NCBI GenBank assembly: GCA_963847445.1
Contig: CAWJZV010000046.1
Span: 224,001 to 288,000, forward strand
Direction: 5' to 3'
Source of the DNA: an uncultured delta proteobacterium
GTDB lineage: Bacteria > Desulfobacterota > Binatia > UBA9968
DNA: 64,000 nucleotides
Made by a program: the position numbers and the translations under genes. The notes beneath the pieces are model-generated. The model had not been told where the DNA came from, searched no databases, and was given only the letters and a program-made list of their open reading frames with translations. Of the stretch, positions 4,346-52,104 are shown piece by piece. Numbering within the stretch: the first letter of the stretch is position 1; each line of letters starts with the position of its first letter.

Positions 4346-4454
4346 ATGCCGGTGAAAACCGGCATTCAGGCGACCGGCAGCATCCGTCATACCGTTGAAG
4401 AACGGTATCCAGGTGGATGTTGGGTCTGGATTCCGGCCTGCGCCGGAATGACGG
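4346..4454. repeat. REP-like palindromic repeat cluster (family A)
   Basis: CCGGTGAAAACCGG, CCGTCATACCGTTGAAGAACGGTATCCAGG and TGGATTCCGGCCTGCGCCGGAATGAC modules, shared with 10008, 15010, 50075 and 55122. Confidence 0.75.
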
Positions 4455-4544
4455 AAATCAGAGCGAACTTCCAGTCAATATATTCAAAATCCCTCGGTTC
4501 TTGCAGCTAAGCGTGTTTAGGCTTAACAATTCCCAACCGCCGCA

Positions 4545-5597
4545 TTATTGAACGAACAATTTCTTGATCTGTTCGGTCACTTCCGCCGGTTGCTTGATGA
4601 TGTCGACGGCGGTTTTCTGCAATTGCTCGCCGCGCAGGGGCGCGATTTCGATGGAAAGCTTTTTCGCTTCAGCGAGTAATTCCGGGTCTTTCGAAGCTCT
4701 TTCGTAGCCGTCGCGCAGGATTTTGACGCGGTCGGCCGGGGTCGCCGGCGGGGCGATCAGCGGCCTTGCCCATTCGCCGCCTTGGAGCATCGCCTCGGCG
4801 ACGCGCCGCTTGGTCGCGGCGGTTTTGTATTCGTCCATCAATTCGTAGATCGTCGGCGCATCGGGGATGCGCGGCGAACGCTTGTGGCCGCTCTGGGCGA
4901 GGAAACGGACGAACTTGGTCTTGAGCCAGCTTAAAAATGGCTCGCGGCCGTAGTACGTGGCGATCGTCAATCCCATGCAGGCGACCTCGCCGCGCTCCAT
5001 GGCCAGGGCGATCTCGCTGCTGCCGGGATAGCCGGTGACATGGCCGACCTTCATGCCGACGGTTTCTTCGAGGATCTTCGACATGACGTAATCCGAACTG
5101 CCGACGCCGGTAGAGCCGCATTTGGGCGGCTCTTTCGAGCGAATGATGTCGGCGACGGATCTGAACGGCGCGTCGGCGCGGGCAAACATGATCATGTCGT
5201 CGTTCTCCAAGGAGCCGATCCACTGAAATTTGGTCAGGTCGAACTTTACTTCCTTCTGGCCGGAGAGCTGGGCCAGATAAAAATTATTGTGCGGCGCCAA
5301 CAAAGTCAGTCCATCCGGTTTGGCCACTCCCCAGACATAATTGGCGGCGGTTACCGAACCGGCGCCGGGCATGTTTTGCACGGCGAAATCGGGATTGCCG
5401 GGGATGTACCTGCCCATGTAGCGGGAAACTAAACGGGCGGCGCGATCGTAGCCGCCACCGGTGCTGAGGCCGACGACGATGCGGATCTGTTTGCCTTTGA
5501 AGAACGACTCCTGGGCGTGCAGGGCTTGTGACGGCCATGCCGCGGCCATCATGAGCATCAGGCCGGCCCAGATCATTTTGTCGCGTTGTATCATCAT
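4545..5597 (-). CDS. Bug/TctC tripartite tricarboxylate transporter substrate-binding protein
   Basis: Signal peptide; FFKGKQIRIVVG..GGGYD, VQNMPGAG, AKPDGLT, GYPGSSEIALAMERGEV. Confidence 0.9.
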   Translation of the reverse strand: MMIQRDKMIWAGLMLMMAAAWPSQALHAQESFFKGKQIRIVVGLSTGGGYDRAARLVSRYMGRYIPGNPDFAVQNMPGAGSVTAANYVWGVAKPDGLTLLAPHNNFYLAQLSGQKEVKFDLTKFQWIGSLENDDMIMFARADAPFRSVADIIRSKEPPKCGSTGVGSSDYVMSKILEETVGMKVGHVTGYPGSSEIALAMERGEVACMGLTIATYYGREPFLSWLKTKFVRFLAQSGHKRSPRIPDAPTIYELMDEYKTAATKRRVAEAMLQGGEWARPLIAPPATPADRVKILRDGYERASKDPELLAEAKKLSIEIAPLRGEQLQKTAVDIIKQPAEVTEQIKKLFVQ

Positions 5598-11254: not shown

Positions 11255-12956
11255 ATGGCGGATTCCATCGCGGATGTTTGTATTGTCGGCGTCGGCGGCA
11301 TGGGCGGCATCATGGCCAAGGAGCTGGCCTCCGCCGGGTTGAAAGTGGTGGGCTTTGAGCGCGGCCCGGCGCCGAAGAAAGAAGACTACGCGCCGCGCGA
11401 CTCGATCCGGTTTCTCATCCGTCCCGAGCAGCTCGAGTGGGTGCGCCATGAGCCGACGACGACGCGGAAACAGGCCGGACAGAAAACCAACTTGCAATAT
11501 CGCACGAGTCCCTTGAACGTGTTGGGCGGCGCTTTGCTGCATTGGACCGGACAGTCGTCGCGCTACATGCCCGGCGACTTCAAGATTTACAGCAATGAAA
11601 TCGCCAGCGGCAACGCCGAGCGCGCCAAGGCGGATCTCACCGGCTACGATATCATCGACTGGCCGCTCAGTTACGACGATCTCGAACCGTATTACGAAAA
11701 GTTCGAGTGGGAGTTCGGCATCTCGGGGCAGGCGGGGCTCAATCCCTTCGCCGGGCCGCGCCAGCGCGGCTTTCCGCTGCCGCCGCTGCGCCATAGCGGT
11801 AAGATGCAATTGTTCGCCGAGGCCTGCAAAAAACTCGGCTATCATCCCTACGACACGGCCGCCGGCATCGCGTCGCAGCCTTACAAGCCGGCGGCGCCTT
11901 TCGACACGCGCATCGATGAGCGGCCGGCCTGCGTTTACTGCGCGCCACTGCAACTTCTATGGCTGCCATGTGCACGCCAAGTCGGCGTCGCTCTACATCA
12001 CGATTCCGGTGGCAGTGAAGACCGGCAACTTCGAGCTCAAGACCAATGCCAAAGTCTGCCGCATCAACAGCGACGCCAGCGGCCAGGTCACCGGCGTGAA
12101 TTACTTCGATGCCGACGGCCGCGCGCACGAGCAGCGCGCGCGAGTGGTGATCTTGAGCGCGTTTATCTTCGAGCATGCGCGTTTGCTGCTATTGTCGAAG
12201 ACCGATTCGGGGAAATTCGCCAAAGGCTTGGCCAACTCCAGCGGTTACGTTGGCCGCAATATTCTTGCTCATGGCGATGTCCGCGCCATGGGCGCCTTCG
12301 ACGATTTTATCATCAACGGTTACATCGGTCCCGGCTCGGCGGCCATGCGCATCGACGATTTCAATGGCAACAATTTTGACCATACCGGCCTGGGTTTTAT
12401 CCGCGGCGGCACCATCGGCACCAGCGGCGACGGCACGCCGGTGACGCGGGTCGATGTCTTGCCGCCGGATGTGCCGACCTGGGGCAGGGAGTTCAAGGAG
12501 TTCTATCAACGCTATTACAACCGGATCATGGATTTGAATATGCAGCCGGAGACTTTGCCGCACAAAGCCAATCGCATCGATCTCGATCCGCGCGCGCGCG
12601 ACCGCTGGGGGCTGCCGCTGCCGCGGGTGACCTTCGATTTCCACCAGAACGAGCATCGGCTGCAAAAGTACATGGCCGGCGTGGGTGATCGAATCATGCG
12701 CGCCACCGGGGCGAGCAAAGTATGGACGGAGGAGAAGGGCCGGCCCAACCGCTGGGCCGGCGGCACGCGCATGGGCGCCAGCCCGAAAAATTCCGTCGTC
12801 AATCACAACTGTCAGACCCACGATATTGCCAATCTCTTCGTGGTCGGCGCCTCGGTGTTTCCAACTATGGCCGGTTATCCGCCGACTGCGACCGTGGCGG
12901 CGTTGAGTTATCGGACCTCGGAGTTTATTTTGCAGCAGAAGGATTGGTTCAAGTAG
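11255..12956 (+). CDS. GMC oxidoreductase, gluconate-2-DH flavoprotein-like (frameshift near 11940)
   Basis: DVCIVGVGGMGG, GGALLHW, DWPLSYDDLEPYY, CVYC..CNFYGC, DRWGLPLPRVTF, NLFVVGASVFP. Confidence 0.9.
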
Positions 12957-13090: not shown

Positions 13091-14115
13091 ATGAAACGCA
13101 TCGTTATTTGTTTCGATGGCACTTGGAACAGGCCGGCGGAGGAGTCGCTGCCGAGCGATCAGCAGGTGGAAACCAACGTGCGGCGGTTTTACGAGTCGAT
13201 TCGCCAACAGTCGGCCGATGGCGTGAAACAAGTGAAATGGTACGACGAAGGGGTCGGCACTCAATGGTACGACCGGGTGATCGGCGGCGGCATCGGCGCT
13301 GGGTTGGAGACTGAATATTGTCCAGGGCTATGAGTTCTTGGCCAAGGCGTACGAAGACGGTGACGAGATTTACGTGCTCGGTTTCAGCCGTGGCGCCTAC
13401 ACGGCGCGCAGCCTCGTGGGCATGCTGCGCAACTGCGGTCTGATCCATCCCAAGCATCTCGCACTGCGCGTCGCGATGGCCTACGGCATTTACCGCACGC
13501 GGGACGATAATGCCGATTCGTTCACGGCCAAGCTCTTCCGTTCTTCGTTTTGCCGCGAGGTTAAGATCAAATTCATCGGCGTTTGGGATACCGTCGGCGC
13601 CCTCGGCGTGCCGCTCGACATTCTCAAAGACTGTGAACATGAAGTTCTACGAGTTCCATGACACCAATCTCAGCGGCATCGTCGAAAACGCCTATCATGC
13701 CATGGCAGTCGACGAGCATCGCCAAGACTATGACGTCTGCCGGTGGAGCCCGGTGGAAAAGCCGCAGCAGAATCTTGAGCAGCGCTGGTTCATCGGTGCG
13801 CACTGCGATGTCGGCGGCGGCTACCCGGACCGGCGCTTGTCCGACATGGCGCTGCGCTGGATGCAGGACAAAGCCAGCGCGCTGGGCTTGGCGCTCGACG
13901 CCGTCGCCATTGACGCCAAGAGTTATCTCGGCGAATCCACCGACTCCTACGCCAAGTTTCTCAAAGGCGTCTACGCCAAGCGCAACGCGCGCCACTACCG
14001 TGCCATCGGCGCGTCCAAGTTCGGCAATGAAGTGGTCGACCCGTCGGTGCAGCAGCGTCGAAAGGAGGACCGCGACTATGAGCCGCAAAACGATGAGTTG
14101 CCGAAGCTGGTGTGA
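13091..14115 (+). CDS. DUF2235 (Tle1-like alpha/beta hydrolase); two frameshifts
   Basis: KRIVICFDGTWN, ETNVRR, YDEGVGT, GFSRGAYTARSL, GVWDTVG, HAMAVDEHR, WFIGAHCDVGGGY. Confidence 0.9.
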
Positions 14116-34264: not shown

Positions 34265-35933
34265 CTTACGCTCCTTCGCTGTGCTTGGGAGAGATGGTCA
34301 ACTGCCGCATCAGGCCGAATACCCGGAACATTCAACGCCATGCGATAGAGTGTGTTCTGCGCGGTGATGTAGAGCGTCTTGCCGTCGGCGCCGCCCCAGG
34401 CGAGGTTGTGCGGGTTCTTCGGCGTCTTGATCGTGCCGAGGTGTTTTCGGCGCGAGATCACCCAGATACCGCCGGGGCCGCAGACGTAAAGATTGCCTTG
34501 TGATCGACTTTGATGCCGTCGATGGCGTCTTCGCCGGGCGCCTCGTCATGTCGAAGAAGACTTTGCCGTTGGACAGCGTGCCATCGGCGTCGACTCGGTA
34601 GCGCATGACGACTTTCTTTTCCGGATCCCAGTTGCCGACGTAGAGATATTTCTCGTCCGGCGAGAAGGCGATACCGTTGGGGCCTTTCAGATCGGTGCTG
34701 ATCCAGTTTGAGCTTGCCGTCTTTCAGGCTGAAGACGCCGCTGTAGGGCAACTGTTTGCGCGGGATCGTCGTAGAATTTCGGCAGATCCAAACGGCGGAT
34801 CGGTGAAGAACAGCGCGCCGTCGGAGCGGTAGACGAGATCGTTGGGCCTGTTGAGCCGCTTGCCTTCGTACTGTCGGCGAGAACGGTCACGCGTCCGTCT
34901 TTCTCGATGCGCGCGACACGGTGGTTGCCATGCTCGTTGATCGTCAGCCTTCCTTGCGGGTCGAGGGTTAGGCCGTTGGAGCCGGGCTGAAAATATTCGC
35001 CGATGTCTTTGCCGGAGTAGCCGCTGTTGGTTTTGAAAACCGACAGCTTGCCGTCGCCGCCGTATTTGTAGATCGTATTGGCATTGGGATCGCTGAAGAG
35101 AAAATCGCCGCTCTGGGTCCAGATCGGTCCTTCGGTGAATTGAAAACCTTCGGCGAGCTTAAAAATCTTCGGGTTGAGCGGCACGATGGCATCGATGGCC
35201 GGATCGACGCGCTCGACATTGACGTTGACTTCGTGCGGCGCGACGGCGACCGGTCCAGCCGGGACTTGTGGAATTCCAACCGGCGCATAGCGCATCCAGA
35301 TATAGTTGGTCGGCGGCTGCGATATCGGGCCGTTGGCGCCGAAGATGGCGAGCTGAATGGTCTGCCCCGGCTTGACGCCGCGGCCGATGACCAGACGATT
35401 CTCTGCGTTCCAGCCTTTGATCACCGAGCCGCCGCTCTGGCCGGCGGCGCGCGGCAGTTCGCCGTCGACCCAGACTTCGGCGTAGTCGTCGAGCGAAGTC
35501 GAAAACGACCGTCGAGCCGGTCGGATTGAAGTTGCCGATGCGCTCGGGGACGGTGATCTTGATTCGATACCAATTGAAAGCGAGCTTGCCGTTGGTGCGT
35601 CGCTTATCCAGGCTGGTCGGTTCGATTACTTCCCATTTCGAATCGTCGAATTCGGCACGGCCGGCTTGCGGTGTGATGTCGTAGGTCTTGTTCGGCGTCG
35701 TCGATGGTTGTCCGTCGGCGCCGACGGCTTTGAAATCGACTTCGATAATTTTCGTGTCGCTGTAGCGCCATTGGCCTTTGACGAGTTGGACGCCGCCTTT
35801 GTTCCGAGGTCGACTTTGCGCCTTCGGCGCGCGTTTGGTGGGCTGTTTCGTTGAGGGGATGGCGTGAGACGATTGATTCGGCGCCCAAGTGCAACCACAA
35901 GGGTTGCGGGAATTATACTTGAGTTAGTTTCAT
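34261..35933 (-). CDS. Exported SMP-30/gluconolactonase with extra N-terminal beta-sandwich domain (frameshifted)
   Basis: N-terminal WRYSDTK...FNWYRIKITVP...DDYAEVWVDG...IQLAIFGANGP; C-terminal FTEGPIW, LFSDP, GSNGL, PNGIAFSPDEK, HNLAWG. Confidence 0.85.
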
Positions 35934-47209: not shown

Positions 47210-47332
47210 GTTCAAATCGTTCAAATCGTTCAAGCCGTTCAAATCGCTGATCGCTCAACGATTCGAACGGATCGTAGCGATTGAACGGCTTGAACGTTTT
47301 GAACGACTGGAGCGTTTGAACGACTTGAACGC
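47210..47332. repeat. 9-nt-period GTTCAA/TTGAAC hairpin between convergent genes
   Basis: (GTTCAAATC)x4-like arm followed by an inverted (TTGAAC)x5-like arm. Confidence 0.78.
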
Positions 47333-47919
47333 GCGAAGCATTTTATAACCGGCGCCAGCTTGAAGGCCAAGCGAAAACCCAAAAGCAGCGCGAGTACCGC
47401 GCCATATTGCACCGGGCGGCGGATGTCGGCTTTGACCAGCCAGTAAAAGTGCAGCACGCCGAGAATTGCGATGCCATAAACCAGATAGTGCAGTTGTTGC
47501 CAGCGCTTGCCGAGGCGGCGGATCATGGCGGCGCTCGATGTAACCGCCAGCGGGATCATTAGCACCAGAGCGCTGAAGCCGACGGTGATGTAGGGCCGCT
47601 TGAAAATGTCTTTGGCGATGGCGGCGAAATCGAAGAACAGATCGAGCACCATGTAGGTGGAGAAATGCAGCGCGGCGTAGAAAAACGCGAACAGGCCGAG
47701 CATGCGGCGCAATTTGATCAGTTCGTTCCAGCCGGTGAGCCGGCGCAGCGGCGTGACGGCTAGACTGGCAAGCAAAATAATCAACGACCAGGAACCGGTG
47801 AAGCGGGTGATGTACTCGATCGGGTTGGCGGTCAAATTATCGCTGTAATAGCCGTAGCCGAGTTGGCCGAGCGGAATGAGGCAGACGATGAAGAGCGCGG
47901 GCTTTAGATAGGCAAGCAT
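47239..47919 (-). CDS. msrQ: MsrQ heme-binding membrane subunit
   Basis: ANPIE, TG.W, LAVTPLR, RRMLGLFAFFYA.LH, KRPYITVG, W..LHYLVY, LHFYW.VK. Confidence 0.95.
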   Translation of the reverse strand: MLAYLKPALFIVCLIPLGQLGYGYYSDNLTANPIEYITRFTGSWSLIILLASLAVTPLRRLTGWNELIKLRRMLGLFAFFYAALHFSTYMVLDLFFDFAAIAKDIFKRPYITVGFSALVLMIPLAVTSSAAMIRRLGKRWQQLHYLVYGIAILGVLHFYWLVKADIRRPVQYGAVLALLLGFRLAFKLAPVIKCFARSSRSNAPVVQNVQAVQSLRSVRIVERSAI

Positions 47920-48016: not shown

Positions 48017-48979
48017 TCAGTAATTTTTCTTAAGATCCATTCCTTTATACAAGCTCGCTACTTGATCGCCGTAACCGTTGAACATCAAGGTCTTGCGCCG
48101 GCGGAATTCGCCGATGCGCCGTTCGGTCGCCTGGGTCCAGCGCGGATGGTCGACTTCGGGATTCACGTTGGAATAAAAGCCATACTCTTGCGGCTGCATC
48201 ATGTTCCACGATGCTGCCGGCTGCTTTTCGACGAAGCGAACTTTGACGATGGACTTGATGCTCTTGAAGCCGTACTTCCACGGCACGACGAGACGGATCG
48301 GCGCGCCGTTCTGTGCCGGCAAGACCTCGCCGTAGAGACCCACCGAGAGAATCGTCAGCGGATGCATCGCTTCATCCATGCGCAACCCTTCGACATAGGG
48401 CCATTCCATGGTCGGCAGCCTTTGGCCAGGAAGCCGCTTGGGATCGTTGAGGGTGACGAATTGGATGAACTTGGCGTTGCTGGTGGGCTCGGCGAGTTTG
48501 ATCAGGGCGCTCAATGGAAAGCCGACCCATGGAATCACCATCGACCACGCTTCAACACAGCGCAGCCGATAAATCCGCTCTTCCAACGGCGCCAGCTTGA
48601 TCAGCTCCTCGATGTCGTAGGTCTTGGCCTTTTTGACTTCGCCTTCCACCGCGACCGACCAAGGACGGGTAATCAGATACTTGGCATTCTCCGCCGGATC
48701 TTCTTTGTCGGGGCCGAGTTCGTAGAAATTATTATAGCTGGTGATCTCCTTCAGCGTGTTGAGCTTTTCGTTGGTGCTGAAATTACTTTTCTTGACGTTG
48801 GCGAGTTTCTCGGCGCCATAGGCGATGCCCGATTCTGTGCCCAGCTCCAAGCCGCCGAGTATCGCGCCGGTGCCGAGCGCCATGGCCGATGCCGAAAGCA
48901 TGAATTGGCGGCGGTTAAGGTAGTGCTCCTTGGGCGTGATCTCCGCTGCTTTGATATCGGCGGGCTTTTTGATCAGCAT
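48017..48979 (-). CDS. msrP: MsrP periplasmic methionine-sulfoxide reductase (Mo, Tat-exported)
   Basis: [12 protein letters not shown] Tat motif, [50 protein letters not shown]. Confidence 0.97.
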
Positions 48980-49008: not shown

Positions 49009-49530
49009 CTATTCGGCGAGCAGTTGTTTGATCGTCGACTCGGTTTTGCCGTAGGCGCCTTCGCCTATATGGCTGTAGCGGATTGAGCCCTTTTTGTCGA
49101 CCAGCACGATGGTCGGCCAAGCCCAGACGCCGTAGCGTTTCCAAATATCGAAGTTGTTGTCTTGCACCACCGGGAACTTGATGCCGAGTTTCGCCGTCGC
49201 ATCTTTCACTTTGTCGATTGGTTTCTCCCAAGGAAACTCCGGCGAGTGGACGCCGACGATGGTTAATCCGGCTTGCTCGTACTTATCATGCCAACTCCGC
49301 AACTGCGGGATGATGTTTTTGCAATTGATTCAGCCATAGGTCCAGAATTCCACAAGGACGACTCGGCCTTTAAGGCTCGCGATGGTCAGCGGTTTGCTGT
49401 TGATCCAATTATCGCCGGCGATATCCGGCGCCGTCGTGCCGCTGGTGAGCGCCGCGCCGGCGCGCGGCCATGCCAGCCAAATCGCTAGCGCGAGAACCAA
49501 AGCGACTGAATAAGCTGTCAAACGCACCAT
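49009..49530 (-). CDS. Exported thioredoxin-like redoxin (DipZ Trx-domain-like) with in-frame UGA, predicted selenoprotein (U-x-x-C)
   Basis: ORFs 49330-49530 and 49009-49302 are in one frame: VLVEFWTYG[TGA]INCKN...GVHSPEF...VVQDN...WAWPT..LVDK.G.IRY.HIGEG.Y; the TGA sits at the first Cys of CxxC. Confidence 0.88.
49285..49314 (-). promoter_or_regulatory. Candidate bacterial SECIS hairpin
   Basis: ATCAT-C-CCGC-AGTT-GCGG-AGTTGGC-ATGAT starting 15 nt after UGA; apical loop 25 nt from UGA with G as second loop base. Confidence 0.6.
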
Positions 49531-49733: not shown

Positions 49734-49946
49734 TTAGTGGAGGAGTTGGGAGAGGGGCGCAAAATTTTCTAATTCTTTATCTAAGTCAACCGGTTGGGCA
49801 GTTTTCTTGATCATTTCCATCACCGCGAATCGAGCCAGGTTGTAAGCGTCTTTATCGTTGTCGGAGTATTCGAAAGCGACTTCGCTGGCGGCGGCGATCA
49901 AATCTCCCAAGGTGGTGTCGATCCTGCGGCTATTGGGTTTTTCCAT
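49734..49946 (-). CDS. Small hypothetical protein
   Basis: 70-aa ORF with GAAAGGA SD, its own ECF-type promoter and terminator; IDTTLGDLIAA motif. Confidence 0.7.
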   Translation of the reverse strand: MEKPNSRRIDTTLGDLIAAASEVAFEYSDNDKDAYNLARFAVMEMIKKTAQPVDLDKELENFAPLSQLLH

Positions 49947-50305: not shown

Positions 50306-51067
50306 TTACTGTTCAGGCGGCGGATCGATCTCAGCTTCTTCAACCTTCTTGGCTGGCGCGAGCTGTTGGGCGTTGCGATTTTCACTCTGGCTCAGGTAGC
50401 CGACACTGGCGAGGCGGTTCAATATGATGTTGCGCCGGGCGGCTAGGCCGCGCTCCTTGGAGTTGCGCGGGCTCGGCAGCAGGGCGGCCAAGGTCGCGGC
50501 TTCGACCAGGTCGACGGAACCGGCGGATTTGCCGAAGTAGTGTCGCGCCGCCGCTTCGACGCCGTAAATATTGCGGCCCAATTCGACGACGTTCAAGTAA
50601 ACCTCGAAAATGCGCCGCTTCGACAGGGCGTTTTCCAGCTGATGGGCGATGATGATTTCTTTCAACTTGCGCAGCGGATTTTTCGACGGGCTGAGATAAA
50701 GGTTCTTGGCAAGCTGCATGGTGATGGTGCTGCCGCCTCGGCTAAAGCTCAAGGTCTCAAGATCCTTCTTGAACGCGGCCTTGAGCTCTGTCATGTCAAC
50801 GCCCTTATGGCTGTAGAATCCGGCGTCCTCACTGATCAGGACGGCTTTTTTAATATGCTCTGAGATCGCACCGTAGGACACCCAGATTTGTTGGCGCCGC
50901 CCGCGTGAGTTTTGCTTTTTGTACTCTTGGTCGCGCAAGTCCATGAGCGCAGTGCTATTAGGATTCTTCTGCTTGAGCCGCGAAACGTCGGGCAACGAGA
51001 AGTAAAAATAGTAACCGGCGCTGACCAGGAGGGTCGCGACCAAGGTGCTAAGTAGGACTCTTTTCAT
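50306..51067 (-). CDS. mtgA: Monofunctional peptidoglycan transglycosylase
   Basis: SEDAGFYSHKGVD, RGGSTITMQLAKNLYL, RKLKE, SKRRIFEVYLN. Confidence 0.9.
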   Translation of the reverse strand: MKRVLLSTLVATLLVSAGYYFYFSLPDVSRLKQKNPNSTALMDLRDQEYKKQNSRGRRQQIWVSYGAISEHIKKAVLISEDAGFYSHKGVDMTELKAAFKKDLETLSFSRGGSTITMQLAKNLYLSPSKNPLRKLKEIIIAHQLENALSKRRIFEVYLNVVELGRNIYGVEAAARHYFGKSAGSVDLVEAATLAALLPSPRNSKERGLAARRNIILNRLASVGYLSQSENRNAQQLAPAKKVEEAEIDPPPEQ

Positions 51068-51069
51068 GT

Positions 51070-52104
51070 TCAATAAATAACTTGACGGCTTTGCTGGTCA
51101 TCGATGAGGTGGCATAGCGGTGCAGCTGGGACGGCAGGATCCAACGCCATCCGGGCTGGCAGGCGTTTCGTCAGCGGCCAACGATAGAGTAAGACGGGCG
51201 CATGAATGCGCCGGTTGGTTATGCTATGGCGCAGCTCGCCCAAGCGCTGCGGCCGCGGGCCGGCGACGGCAAGCGGTTTGAGTTCTTTGCGAATCGCCGC
51301 CTCCGGTTTTGCCGTTGGCGCGATCTCGACGCCGGGGAGTTCCCACAGTTTAGCCAGCAAGCCATCGGCTTGACGGCGCCGCAGGAGTATCTTGCCGTGA
51401 TAATTGACGATGGCCAGCGGCCAGGTGACGTCGCGAAAGTTTACTCTTGGCCGCTGCTGTGCAGATTGGCGCTGTCCCAGCCGATCTCGGCTCCGGCAGT
51501 CGGAAGTCACCGGACAGTCGCCGCAGCGCGGCTCTTTCGGCGTACAGAGCGTGGCGCCGAGTTCCATCAAGGCTTGGTTGAGATTTCCCGGTTGCGAGGT
51601 TTGTGCCAGTTTGCCGGCGATCGTGCGCACTGCCGCTTCGCCGTTTGTGCGAAATAGCCGGTTAAACACGCGGCGCACGTTGCCGTCGACGGCGGGATAT
51701 TTTTCGTCGAAGGCGATGCTGAGCAGCGCTCCGGCGGTGTAGGCGCCGATACCGGGGAGGGCGCGCAGCAGTTCATAATCCCGCGGCAGAGTGCCGCCAT
51801 GTTGGGCGACGATCTGGCGCGCGGCTTTGTGTAAATTCTCGGCGCGCCGGTAGTAGCCCAGCCCTGACCACAGGCGCAGCACCCGCGGCAGCGGCGCGCC
51901 GGCAAGCGTTTGCAGGGTCGGAAACGCTGCAACAAAACGCGCGTAGTAGGGCAACACGGTCTTGACTTGGGTTTGCTGCAGCATGGTCTCCGAGATCCAG
52001 ATGGTGTAGGGATCGCGCGAGCGGCGCCAGGGTAAATCGCGCTGGTTGCTTCGATACCAGTTGAGCAGCCGGCGCCGCAGCAGAGAAAGATTTACTTCAG
52101 CCAT
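51070..52104 (-). CDS. mutY: A/G-specific adenine glycosylase
   Basis: RDLPWR, WISETMLQQT, WSGLGYYRRA, LPGIGAYTA, VDGNVRRV, C-x6-C-x2-C-x5-C. Confidence 0.95.
   Translation of the reverse strand: MAEVNLSLLRRRLLNWYRSNQRDLPWRRSRDPYTIWISETMLQQTQVKTVLPYYARFVAAFPTLQTLAGAPLPRVLRLWSGLGYYRRAENLHKAARQIVAQHGGTLPRDYELLRALPGIGAYTAGALLSIAFDEKYPAVDGNVRRVFNRLFRTNGEAAVRTIAGKLAQTSQPGNLNQALMELGATLCTPKEPRCGDCPVTSDCRSRDRLGQRQSAQQRPRVNFRDVTWPLAIVNYHGKILLRRRQADGLLAKLWELPGVEIAPTAKPEAAIRKELKPLAVAGPRPQRLGELRHSITNRRIHAPVLLYRWPLTKRLPARMALDPAVPAAPLCHLIDDQQSRQVIY

Follow-up and report, generated by a model that had tools for sequence, protein, structure and literature searches.

A predicted selenocysteine redoxin of the DipZ type encoded beside msrPQ in an uncultured Binatia bacterium

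Background

The closest described systems to the gene cluster reported here are selenoproteins with selenocysteine (Sec, U) in a UxxC motif, the methionine sulfoxide reductase (Msr) system MsrPQ of Escherichia coli, and the DipZ protein of Mycobacterium tuberculosis. The cluster lies in a 64,000-nucleotide stretch of DNA from an uncultured delta proteobacterium of the Binatia (assembly GCA_963847445.1, contig CAWJZV010000046.1, positions 224,001 to 288,000), which we call the window, and consists of a redoxin gene interrupted by an in-frame TGA, followed by msrP and msrQ. An earlier note on this DNA had proposed that the interrupted gene is a hidden selenoprotein. Bacterial Sec codons are recognized by the selenocysteine insertion sequence (SECIS), which in its bacterial (bSECIS) geometry is a hairpin a short way past the UGA whose apical loop is conserved.

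The E. coli msrPQ operon presumably has no redoxin gene. The selenoprotein review that we use for comparison has Peng et al. 2016 among its references. In its accessible part, that review (PMC13188914, 2026) lists a 'Redoxin family protein' (PF08534, UxxC), a 'Prx-like thiol:disulfide oxidoreductase' (PF00578), and a 'Thiol:disulfide interchange protein' (PF13098), and cites Zhang & Gladyshev 2008 (PMC2398784). The same dynamics of Sec and cysteine (Cys) as seen in this family are described in the accessible part of PMC1794560. For E. coli, the available text of PMC8945050 states that MsrP is reduced via MsrQ.

Results

All coordinates are window positions, the redoxin-msrP-msrQ cluster lies on the minus strand, and nucleotides (nt) after the interruption are counted with the U of the UGA as nt 1. 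The redoxin gene is one reading frame without a frameshift, and the TGA is its sole interruption (Table 1). The two open reading frames (ORFs) given by translation table 11, 49530..49330 (66 aa) and 49302..49009 (97 aa), share this frame, and the translation bears out the earlier claim that they are a single frame split by a TGA in FWTYG-U-INC, with no indel. Read with TGA as U, the gene encodes 173 residues with a single recoded codon, U67, in the motif EFWTYG-U-INCK.

A six-frame search of 61 genomes of the same order, this genome and 60 relatives, gave 43 matches at E <= 7.9e-49, and 38 of them had exactly one in-frame TGA. The five without it come from G003, G013, G033, G019, and a C-terminal fragment of G024; the TGA of that locus lies in its N-terminal fragment. 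The codon itself was read in 40 orthologous loci, the window's own included, after G012:C120, G024, G019, and paralogues of at most 46% identity were left out. Down to 47% identity, these loci have TGA in 37 cases, TGC in two (G003 and G013), and TGT in one (G033). Of the 37, two belong to unpublished genomes (G005, G035), which carry no claim by themselves; leaving them out gives TGA in 35 of 38. Among 79 loci of other lineages, TGA was found in 10, TGC in 57, and TGT in 12, and the TGA-bearing records are labelled Methylomirabilota, Rokuibacteriota, Binatia, proteobacterial metagenome-assembled genome, Caldilineales, and Cellvibrionaceae. U67 is aligned with TGC or TGT at 3 of the 40 order-level loci and 69 of the 79 wider ones.

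The sequence after the TGA is conserved as protein. An alignment of 13 redoxins has 42 invariant columns, mostly after U67, and the ratio of non-synonymous to synonymous change (pN/pS) downstream of the UGA is 0.10-0.23 in four pairs, which indicates purifying selection and translation of the region past the UGA. Homologues with a conserved TGA and continued coding beyond it, which the earlier note had named as a check, are thus at hand in 37 of 40 loci. Judged by comparison, which is how recoding was established throughout, the in-frame TGA is a real Sec codon and the redoxin belongs to a true selenoprotein gene family.

That the TGA arose from miscalling of TGC or TGT is very improbable. The assembly is indeed error-rich, and its closest relative (G003, 95% identical) has TGC; however, the errors seen in the assembly are indels and not substitutions, TGA is ancestral (36 of the 39 other loci), and the codon after it is ATC, as in the TGA-bearing genes, while G003 has AGC. 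The error rate was estimated from 60 orthologs of ORFs from 160 kb of the relative G014. Over 21,279 aligned residues we counted 30 frame changes (0.47 per kb), and 21 of the 60 genes were broken, in agreement with the earlier reading of the other breaks in the contig as indels. At recurring positions, single letters of the assembly are missing from the contigs of four public runs; the assembly carries many single-base insertion errors. In the window, frame breaks occur in otherwise conserved genes near 11944, 13300-13630, 18377, 35100-35900, 41100, and 55540.

A SECIS-like hairpin follows the TGA. The upper stem pairs nt 25-28 with nt 33-36 around a loop at nt 29-32, and a possible lower stem would pair nt 19-23 with nt 44-48. 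The earlier note had described this extended hairpin at 49285-49314. Its position, its loop AGUU, and the distance of 25 nt from UGA to loop all stand, while the lower stem lacks conservation beyond the genus (50.5% of cells paired). We found a compact hairpin in the same place, nt 21-41 downstream, in all 38 distinct Sec-form windows (nt 16-48), with a mean fold energy of -10.8 kcal/mol versus -6.2 for 70 distinct windows of Cys forms. Stems with 5 bp or more in an unbroken run occur in 32 of the 38 Sec forms versus 3 of the 70 Cys forms, and two of those three are G003 and G013. The hairpin is retained across at least seven different stem sequences among the Sec forms, such as CCCGC/GCGGG, TCCCATC/GGTGGGA, TGCCTTG/CAAGGCA, TAATCCCT/AGGGATTG, and ATTCCTTC/GAAGGAAT. 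Its apical loop holds GUU or GGU, and the peptide encoded there varies (PQLRG, PSLVG, PWVKA, PSVKE). It is this comparison across Sec and Cys forms, and not any single fold, that decides for a SECIS.

G003 and G013 (loci L024 and L039) belong to the same genus; they have TGC in place of TGA and keep the hairpin, with 7 and 5 bp respectively, and G003 still possesses tRNA-Sec as well as the sel genes. It seems that Sec was converted to Cys recently in both, probably in independent events.

By Pfam, the redoxin matches AhpC-TSA (64 bits), Redoxin (56 bits), and Thioredoxin_8 (52 bits). No NCBIfam model scored above its cut-off; the nearest selenoprotein model, NF041054, reached 34.2 bits against a cut-off of 300. 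The ResA-like WAxxUGC selenoprotein that this model describes was ruled out by the score, and the motif here is U-I-N-C, not UGC. When a profile of 13 orthologs was compared with solved structures, the best match was the C-terminal domain of M. tuberculosis DipZ (2HYX, 5CYY; E 2.8e-53, 183.5 bits). The match spans profile positions 16-168 and aligns U67 with the first Cys of the DipZ CINC, setting FWAYSCINC against FWTYG-U-INC, so that the assignment to DipZ-type thioredoxin (Trx) domains made in the earlier note holds. ResA/YkuV structures followed at 60-80 bits, Neisseria PilB at ~37 bits, and peroxiredoxins at 31-35 bits. The (C/U)xxC of the Trx-fold domain stands in the position typical of the DipZ C-terminal and TlpA-ResA families, and by its sequence the product is a DipZ C-terminal-type redoxin. 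By eye, its leader consists of MVR, a hydrophobic run, and then PRAGA-A (an AGA-A site), and is retained in orthologs. It looks like a signal peptide, as had been noted earlier, or a membrane anchor, and export is predicted.

These results bear on the idea that the protein is a periplasmic Sec peroxidase, peroxiredoxin-like, which destroys oxidants and is not a protein reductase. The best Pfam match is to AhpC-TSA, and the motif can also be read as T-x-x-U, the pattern given for Sec peroxiredoxins in the accessible part of PMC13188914. Peroxiredoxins are, however, far behind DipZ and ResA/YkuV in the structure profile, the resolving Cys lies three residues past U as in disulfide reductases, and at position -3 M. 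tuberculosis DipZ carries A in place of T. We consider this function quite unlikely.

The genes downstream of the redoxin are clear equivalogs of msrP and msrQ, with NCBIfam scores above the cut-offs (Table 1). Both are adjacent and on the same strand; msrP starts 29 nt past the redoxin stop codon, the msrP-msrQ spacer is 97 nt, and no kinase or regulator gene intervenes between redoxin and msrP. The MsrP N-terminus carries NRRQF, of the twin-arginine type, and all 11 aligned sequences share N23, R24, R25, and F27. This agrees with the earlier description of a Tat-exported msrP and then msrQ closely behind the redoxin. We infer that the three genes are co-transcribed because of the 29-nt spacer and the conserved gene order. 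A scan for promoters and terminators found no sigma-70-like site upstream of the redoxin gene on the minus strand, and this result was not used.

The gene order is conserved in relatives, in keeping with the placement of the redoxin as first gene of an msrPQ cluster by the earlier note. It was observed that msrP lies directly downstream at all 20 f1 loci (three of them cut by contig ends) and all four f2 loci, and msrQ was seen at 16 of the 20 and all four, respectively. Locus L100 has the order msrP-msrQ-redoxin, L088 and L089 have a response regulator between redoxin and msrP, and L092 has a histidine kinase beside the redoxin. The f3 loci, all of one genus, keep the TGA; msrPQ is absent from 15 of 15, and msrA is a convergent neighbour in 13 of them. 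At five Cys-form loci elsewhere, msrA is nearby, and in two database proteins of 293-294 aa (P0089 and P0120) a redoxin with WTFGCYNC and 56-59% identity is fused to a C-terminal MsrB (PF01641). This genome encodes one CcdA (PF02683, 65.4 bits, C9:88182-88832), the only DsbD_TM match in it and a putative pairing partner of the redoxin.

The MsrB fusions, the msrA neighbours, and the CcdA gene elsewhere in the genome favour a thiol/selenol arm in parallel to MsrPQ. From this context, the redoxin is most likely a periplasmic selenol/thiol reductase working in parallel to MsrPQ. The earlier note had suggested a Sec-thiol arm alongside MsrPQ or feeding it; the first part is favoured by the same three observations, and nothing was found for the feeding of MsrP. 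Such a redoxin would be a direct MsrP partner that donates electrons or re-reduces an oxidized residue, as a thiol/selenol input beside MsrQ. The immediate and conserved adjacency, with probable co-transcription, at 24 of 24 f1 and f2 loci speaks for this, as does the other gene order in L100. Against it, the same redoxin lineage occurs with its TGA away from msrPQ at all 15 f3 loci, the MsrB fusions and msrA neighbours elsewhere fit a thiol-type Msr as client, and E. coli MsrP is reduced through MsrQ (PMC8945050, accessible text), so we regard a direct partnership as unlikely. Slightly less likely still is a Sec redoxin dedicated to MsrP, either as a second selenol-based input or for the rescue of MsrP after oxidant damage. 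If true, a quinone/heme route and a CcdA-fed selenium route would be combined in one operon for envelope methionine repair in these soil and sediment bacteria.

Two side observations concern the possible partners. On C9 (L166:773-2220), the CcdA gene overlaps a canonical TlpA-like redoxin gene (FWASWCVPC). An MsrA encoded on the minus strand of C33 (L167:1435-2109) has a hydrophobic N-terminal leader ending in ...APGSAQ-T; it is probably exported and is a candidate client of the redoxin.

The explanation that we consider probable as a whole joins a Sec redoxin, SECIS-directed recoding, and a parallel envelope reductase. The product of the gene would be an exported Trx-fold disulfide reductase in which the attacking Cys of CxxC is Sec (U67-I-N-C70). 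Its UGA would be recoded by way of the in-frame hairpin 21-41 nt downstream, with GUU in the apical loop, together with SelB and tRNA-Sec. The resulting periplasmic selenol/thiol reductase may draw electrons from a CcdA-type membrane protein and would repair oxidized envelope proteins alongside MsrPQ. Its clients could be exported MsrA or MsrB of the thiol type, which it would re-reduce, or oxidized cysteines. No electrons would pass from the redoxin to the molybdenum (Mo) enzyme MsrP, whose electron source in E. coli is MsrQ.

Several observations weigh against this explanation. With regard to function, the role of the redoxin is read from gene context, and every functional step is inferred; the convergent msrA of the f3 loci looks cytoplasmic (no leader was seen), and these loci, being of one genus, are not independent. 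With regard to the hairpin, the window's own sequence folded alone is no better than its shuffles, of which 139 of 200 fold equally well (z 0.45), and therefore is no proof of a SECIS by itself. Its stem is the weakest of the family, with only four uninterrupted pairs because of a G to A change at nt 37 specific to this genome. The difference in fold energy between Sec and Cys forms has a Mann-Whitney P of 2e-11, which is overstated, as the sequences are kin. Covariation counted in fixed columns of a 44-sequence alignment was obscured, as pairing occurs in two registers, i+j = 61 or 62. In register A, 76.9% of cells are paired and the covariation score was reached by 0 of 500 shuffles, while register B does not surpass its shuffles. 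Because different clades pair in the two registers, fixed-column counts are blurred, and they were replaced by per-sequence folds and stem runs.

The remaining points against it concern the decoding machinery in an assembly that is 91.8% complete with 6.9% contamination. The earlier note had proposed searching the genome for the sel genes and tRNA-Sec. The former were found together on contig C14, namely selA (569.8 bits), selD (360.3 bits), and selB (in four pieces), although frameshifted. Relatives have selA, selB, and selD intact in the three genomes read, and tRNA-Sec at 74-78 bits in five of five. The frameshifts specific to this genome number one in selA, three in selB, and one in selD, five in ~4.4 kb. 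This is ~2.4x the baseline given above (2.07 expected, Poisson estimate P ~0.06), a marginal excess and therefore not clear decay of the sel genes. The selD gene (C14:194887-195726; L022 about 4388-5417) has an in-frame TGA near its N-terminus, and so appears to be a selenoprotein gene itself; its frameshift lies ~190 nt before the end.

The search for tRNA-Sec failed: no intact gene was found in the assembly, and Rfam gave only tRNA-Ser below the cut-off. An 82-nt 'tRNA-SeC(tca)' called by ARAGORN at C2:139122-139203 is a false positive, with a mismatched acceptor stem, a poor cloverleaf, and no Rfam match (E <= 1). What is left at the syntenic locus is a 23-nt 5' piece at C4:239464-239486 (2 mismatches; L085 9965-9987) and a 28-nt 3' piece at C12:77575-77602 (L086 9976-10003), each within a different contig. 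The 3' piece is directly adjoined by a tyrosine integrase gene (Arm-DNA-bind_2 and Phage_integrase; L086:10051-11241, minus strand), and the strain-specific DNA beside it bears a DUF6094 methyltransferase/helicase gene. The 10 kb past the 3' piece is nearly absent from five same-genus genomes, which marks it as an island. The DNA past the 5' piece is found in G014 on a different contig from the G014 tRNA-Sec, which indicates a rearrangement or a chimeric join. It looks as if an island integrated in tRNA-Sec and a rearrangement followed. The 5' junction is spanned by one short-read contig of 392 nt with 4 differences (public run X2, record 13); none of the public runs holds more than 0.28 of the words, and their contigs are mostly from 95-96% relatives, the bridging contig excepted.

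A real, if lesser, possibility is therefore that this strain no longer decodes UGA, with its tRNA-Sec lost to an integrative element and a rearrangement. Translation would then stop after 66 residues, and the redoxin would be a very recent pseudogene here and still a selenoprotein gene in relatives. The two fragments inside contigs, the adjoining integrase and the island beyond it, the short-read contig across the 5' junction, the frameshifts in the sel genes, and the pair lost from the SECIS stem all agree with this. On the other side, an intact tRNA-Sec copy may be unassembled or the join chimeric, given the completeness and contamination of the assembly; the frameshift excess is marginal in an assembly with single-base insertions throughout; and selD retains its own TGA. 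In addition, the redoxin gene gives no sign of decay, with no frameshift and a single residue change specific to this genome after U67, and no Cys paralogue of the redoxin was found in this genome as a back-up (one match in G000). We continue to prefer the Sec redoxin parallel to MsrPQ for the family, while it is uncertain that this strain decodes UGA, given that the single tRNA-Sec locus assembled is broken.

Table 1 Positions of the redoxin gene, its recoding signals, and the adjoining msrPQ genes in the window
Feature	Position	Strand	Basis
Redoxin selenoprotein gene of DipZ/TlpA type, predicted to be exported; 173 aa, U67, stop codon 49011..49009	49009..49530	-	Pfam, PDB profile match, orthologs
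UGA read as Sec codon, first residue of the U-I-N-C redox motif	49330..49332	-	Translation and ortholog codons
SECIS-like apical hairpin, stem CCGC/GCGG, loop AGUU	49297..49308	-	Fold and comparison of Sec forms
Extended hairpin with possible lower stem AUCAU/AUGAU	49285..49314	-	Fold; lower stem not conserved beyond genus
N-terminal leader, putative signal peptide or membrane anchor	49450..49530	-	Predicted by eye from the translation
29-nt spacer with GAGGAG ahead of the msrP start codon	48980..49008	-	Sequence
msrP, molybdopterin catalytic subunit, twin-arginine leader	48017..48979	-	NF003767, 483.8 bits (cut-off 207)
msrQ, heme-binding membrane subunit	47239..47919	-	NF003831, 198.1 bits (cut-off 130)

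Upstream of the redoxin gene, a 203-nt gap is followed by a 70-aa ORF (49946..49734, minus strand), to which no kind was assigned. Further upstream on the minus strand, and labelled by eye, ORF 51073..50306 resembles a peptidoglycan glycosyltransferase and ORF 52104..51070 resembles the A/G-specific adenine glycosylase MutY.

Discussion

The redoxin is a known kind of selenoprotein, a UxxC redoxin, in a new setting beside msrPQ. No description of a Sec redoxin with msrPQ turned up in the literature searched; selenoproteome supplements, which were not covered, may list the family. The earlier label of a hidden selenoprotein applies to annotation, as standard annotation splits the gene into the 66-aa and 97-aa ORFs, and it does not apply to the kind of protein, as UxxC redoxin selenoproteins are already catalogued (PMC13188914, accessible part). 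The named records nearest to the redoxin gene are labelled Binatia/Binatota and Methylomirabilota, by which the host is probably a Binatota bacterium. In one public cluster at 90% identity, a 173-aa 'redoxin domain-containing protein [Candidatus Binatota bacterium]' is grouped with the 66-aa and 97-aa products of one contig, and a public Methylomirabilota entry consists of the 103-aa tail after the TGA alone. Because of this splitting in public records, a whole lineage of selenoproteins with predicted export has gone unseen in genomes labelled Binatota, Methylomirabilota, and Rokubacteria.

Nothing known about selenoproteins or MsrPQ is overturned by these results. The three links to Msr proteins (msrPQ in the same operon, msrA as neighbour, and fusion to MsrB) offer a testable idea for the role of DipZ-type redoxins in the envelope. 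The genus also provides a natural series on the retention and replacement of Sec, with TGA forms, two recent Cys converts that keep the hairpin, and one broken tRNA-Sec locus.

Compared with the catalogued UxxC selenoproteins (PMC13188914 and PMC1794560, accessible parts), the redoxin belongs to the same Pfam families, has Sec at the attacking position, and shows the same interchange of Sec and Cys. The tables in those parts do not mention msrPQ, and the subfamily could be compared with their entries by description only. Compared with E. coli MsrPQ (YedYZ), the msrP and msrQ genes here are clear equivalogs; the electrons of the E. coli system come from MsrQ (PMC8945050, accessible text), and the regulator and kinase genes at L088, L089, and L092 recall the two-component control of E. 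coli msrPQ (bioRxiv 10.1101/2021.09.09.459708, accessible part).

M. tuberculosis DipZ (2HYX, 5CYY) is the best solved relative, and both proteins have the WP(T/A) and GEG.Y blocks. DipZ has Cys where the redoxin has Sec, and its PDB chain is longer, at 352-360 residues. Its redoxin domain is fused to a CcdA-type membrane domain, whereas the redoxin here stands alone, with a separate CcdA gene elsewhere in the genome. The N-terminal TlpA-like domain of Neisseria PilB/MsrAB (2H30, 2FY6, 2JZR) is an exported Trx-fold domain, as the redoxin is predicted to be, and is dedicated to methionine sulfoxide repair. Its likeness to the redoxin amounts to ~37 bits by profile and 39 bits with NF010625, and relatives of the redoxin are, like it, fused to MsrB. 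The PilB domain differs in its distant sequence, its use of Cys, and its fusion to MsrA/MsrB; the redoxin described here is encoded beside the Mo enzyme MsrP.

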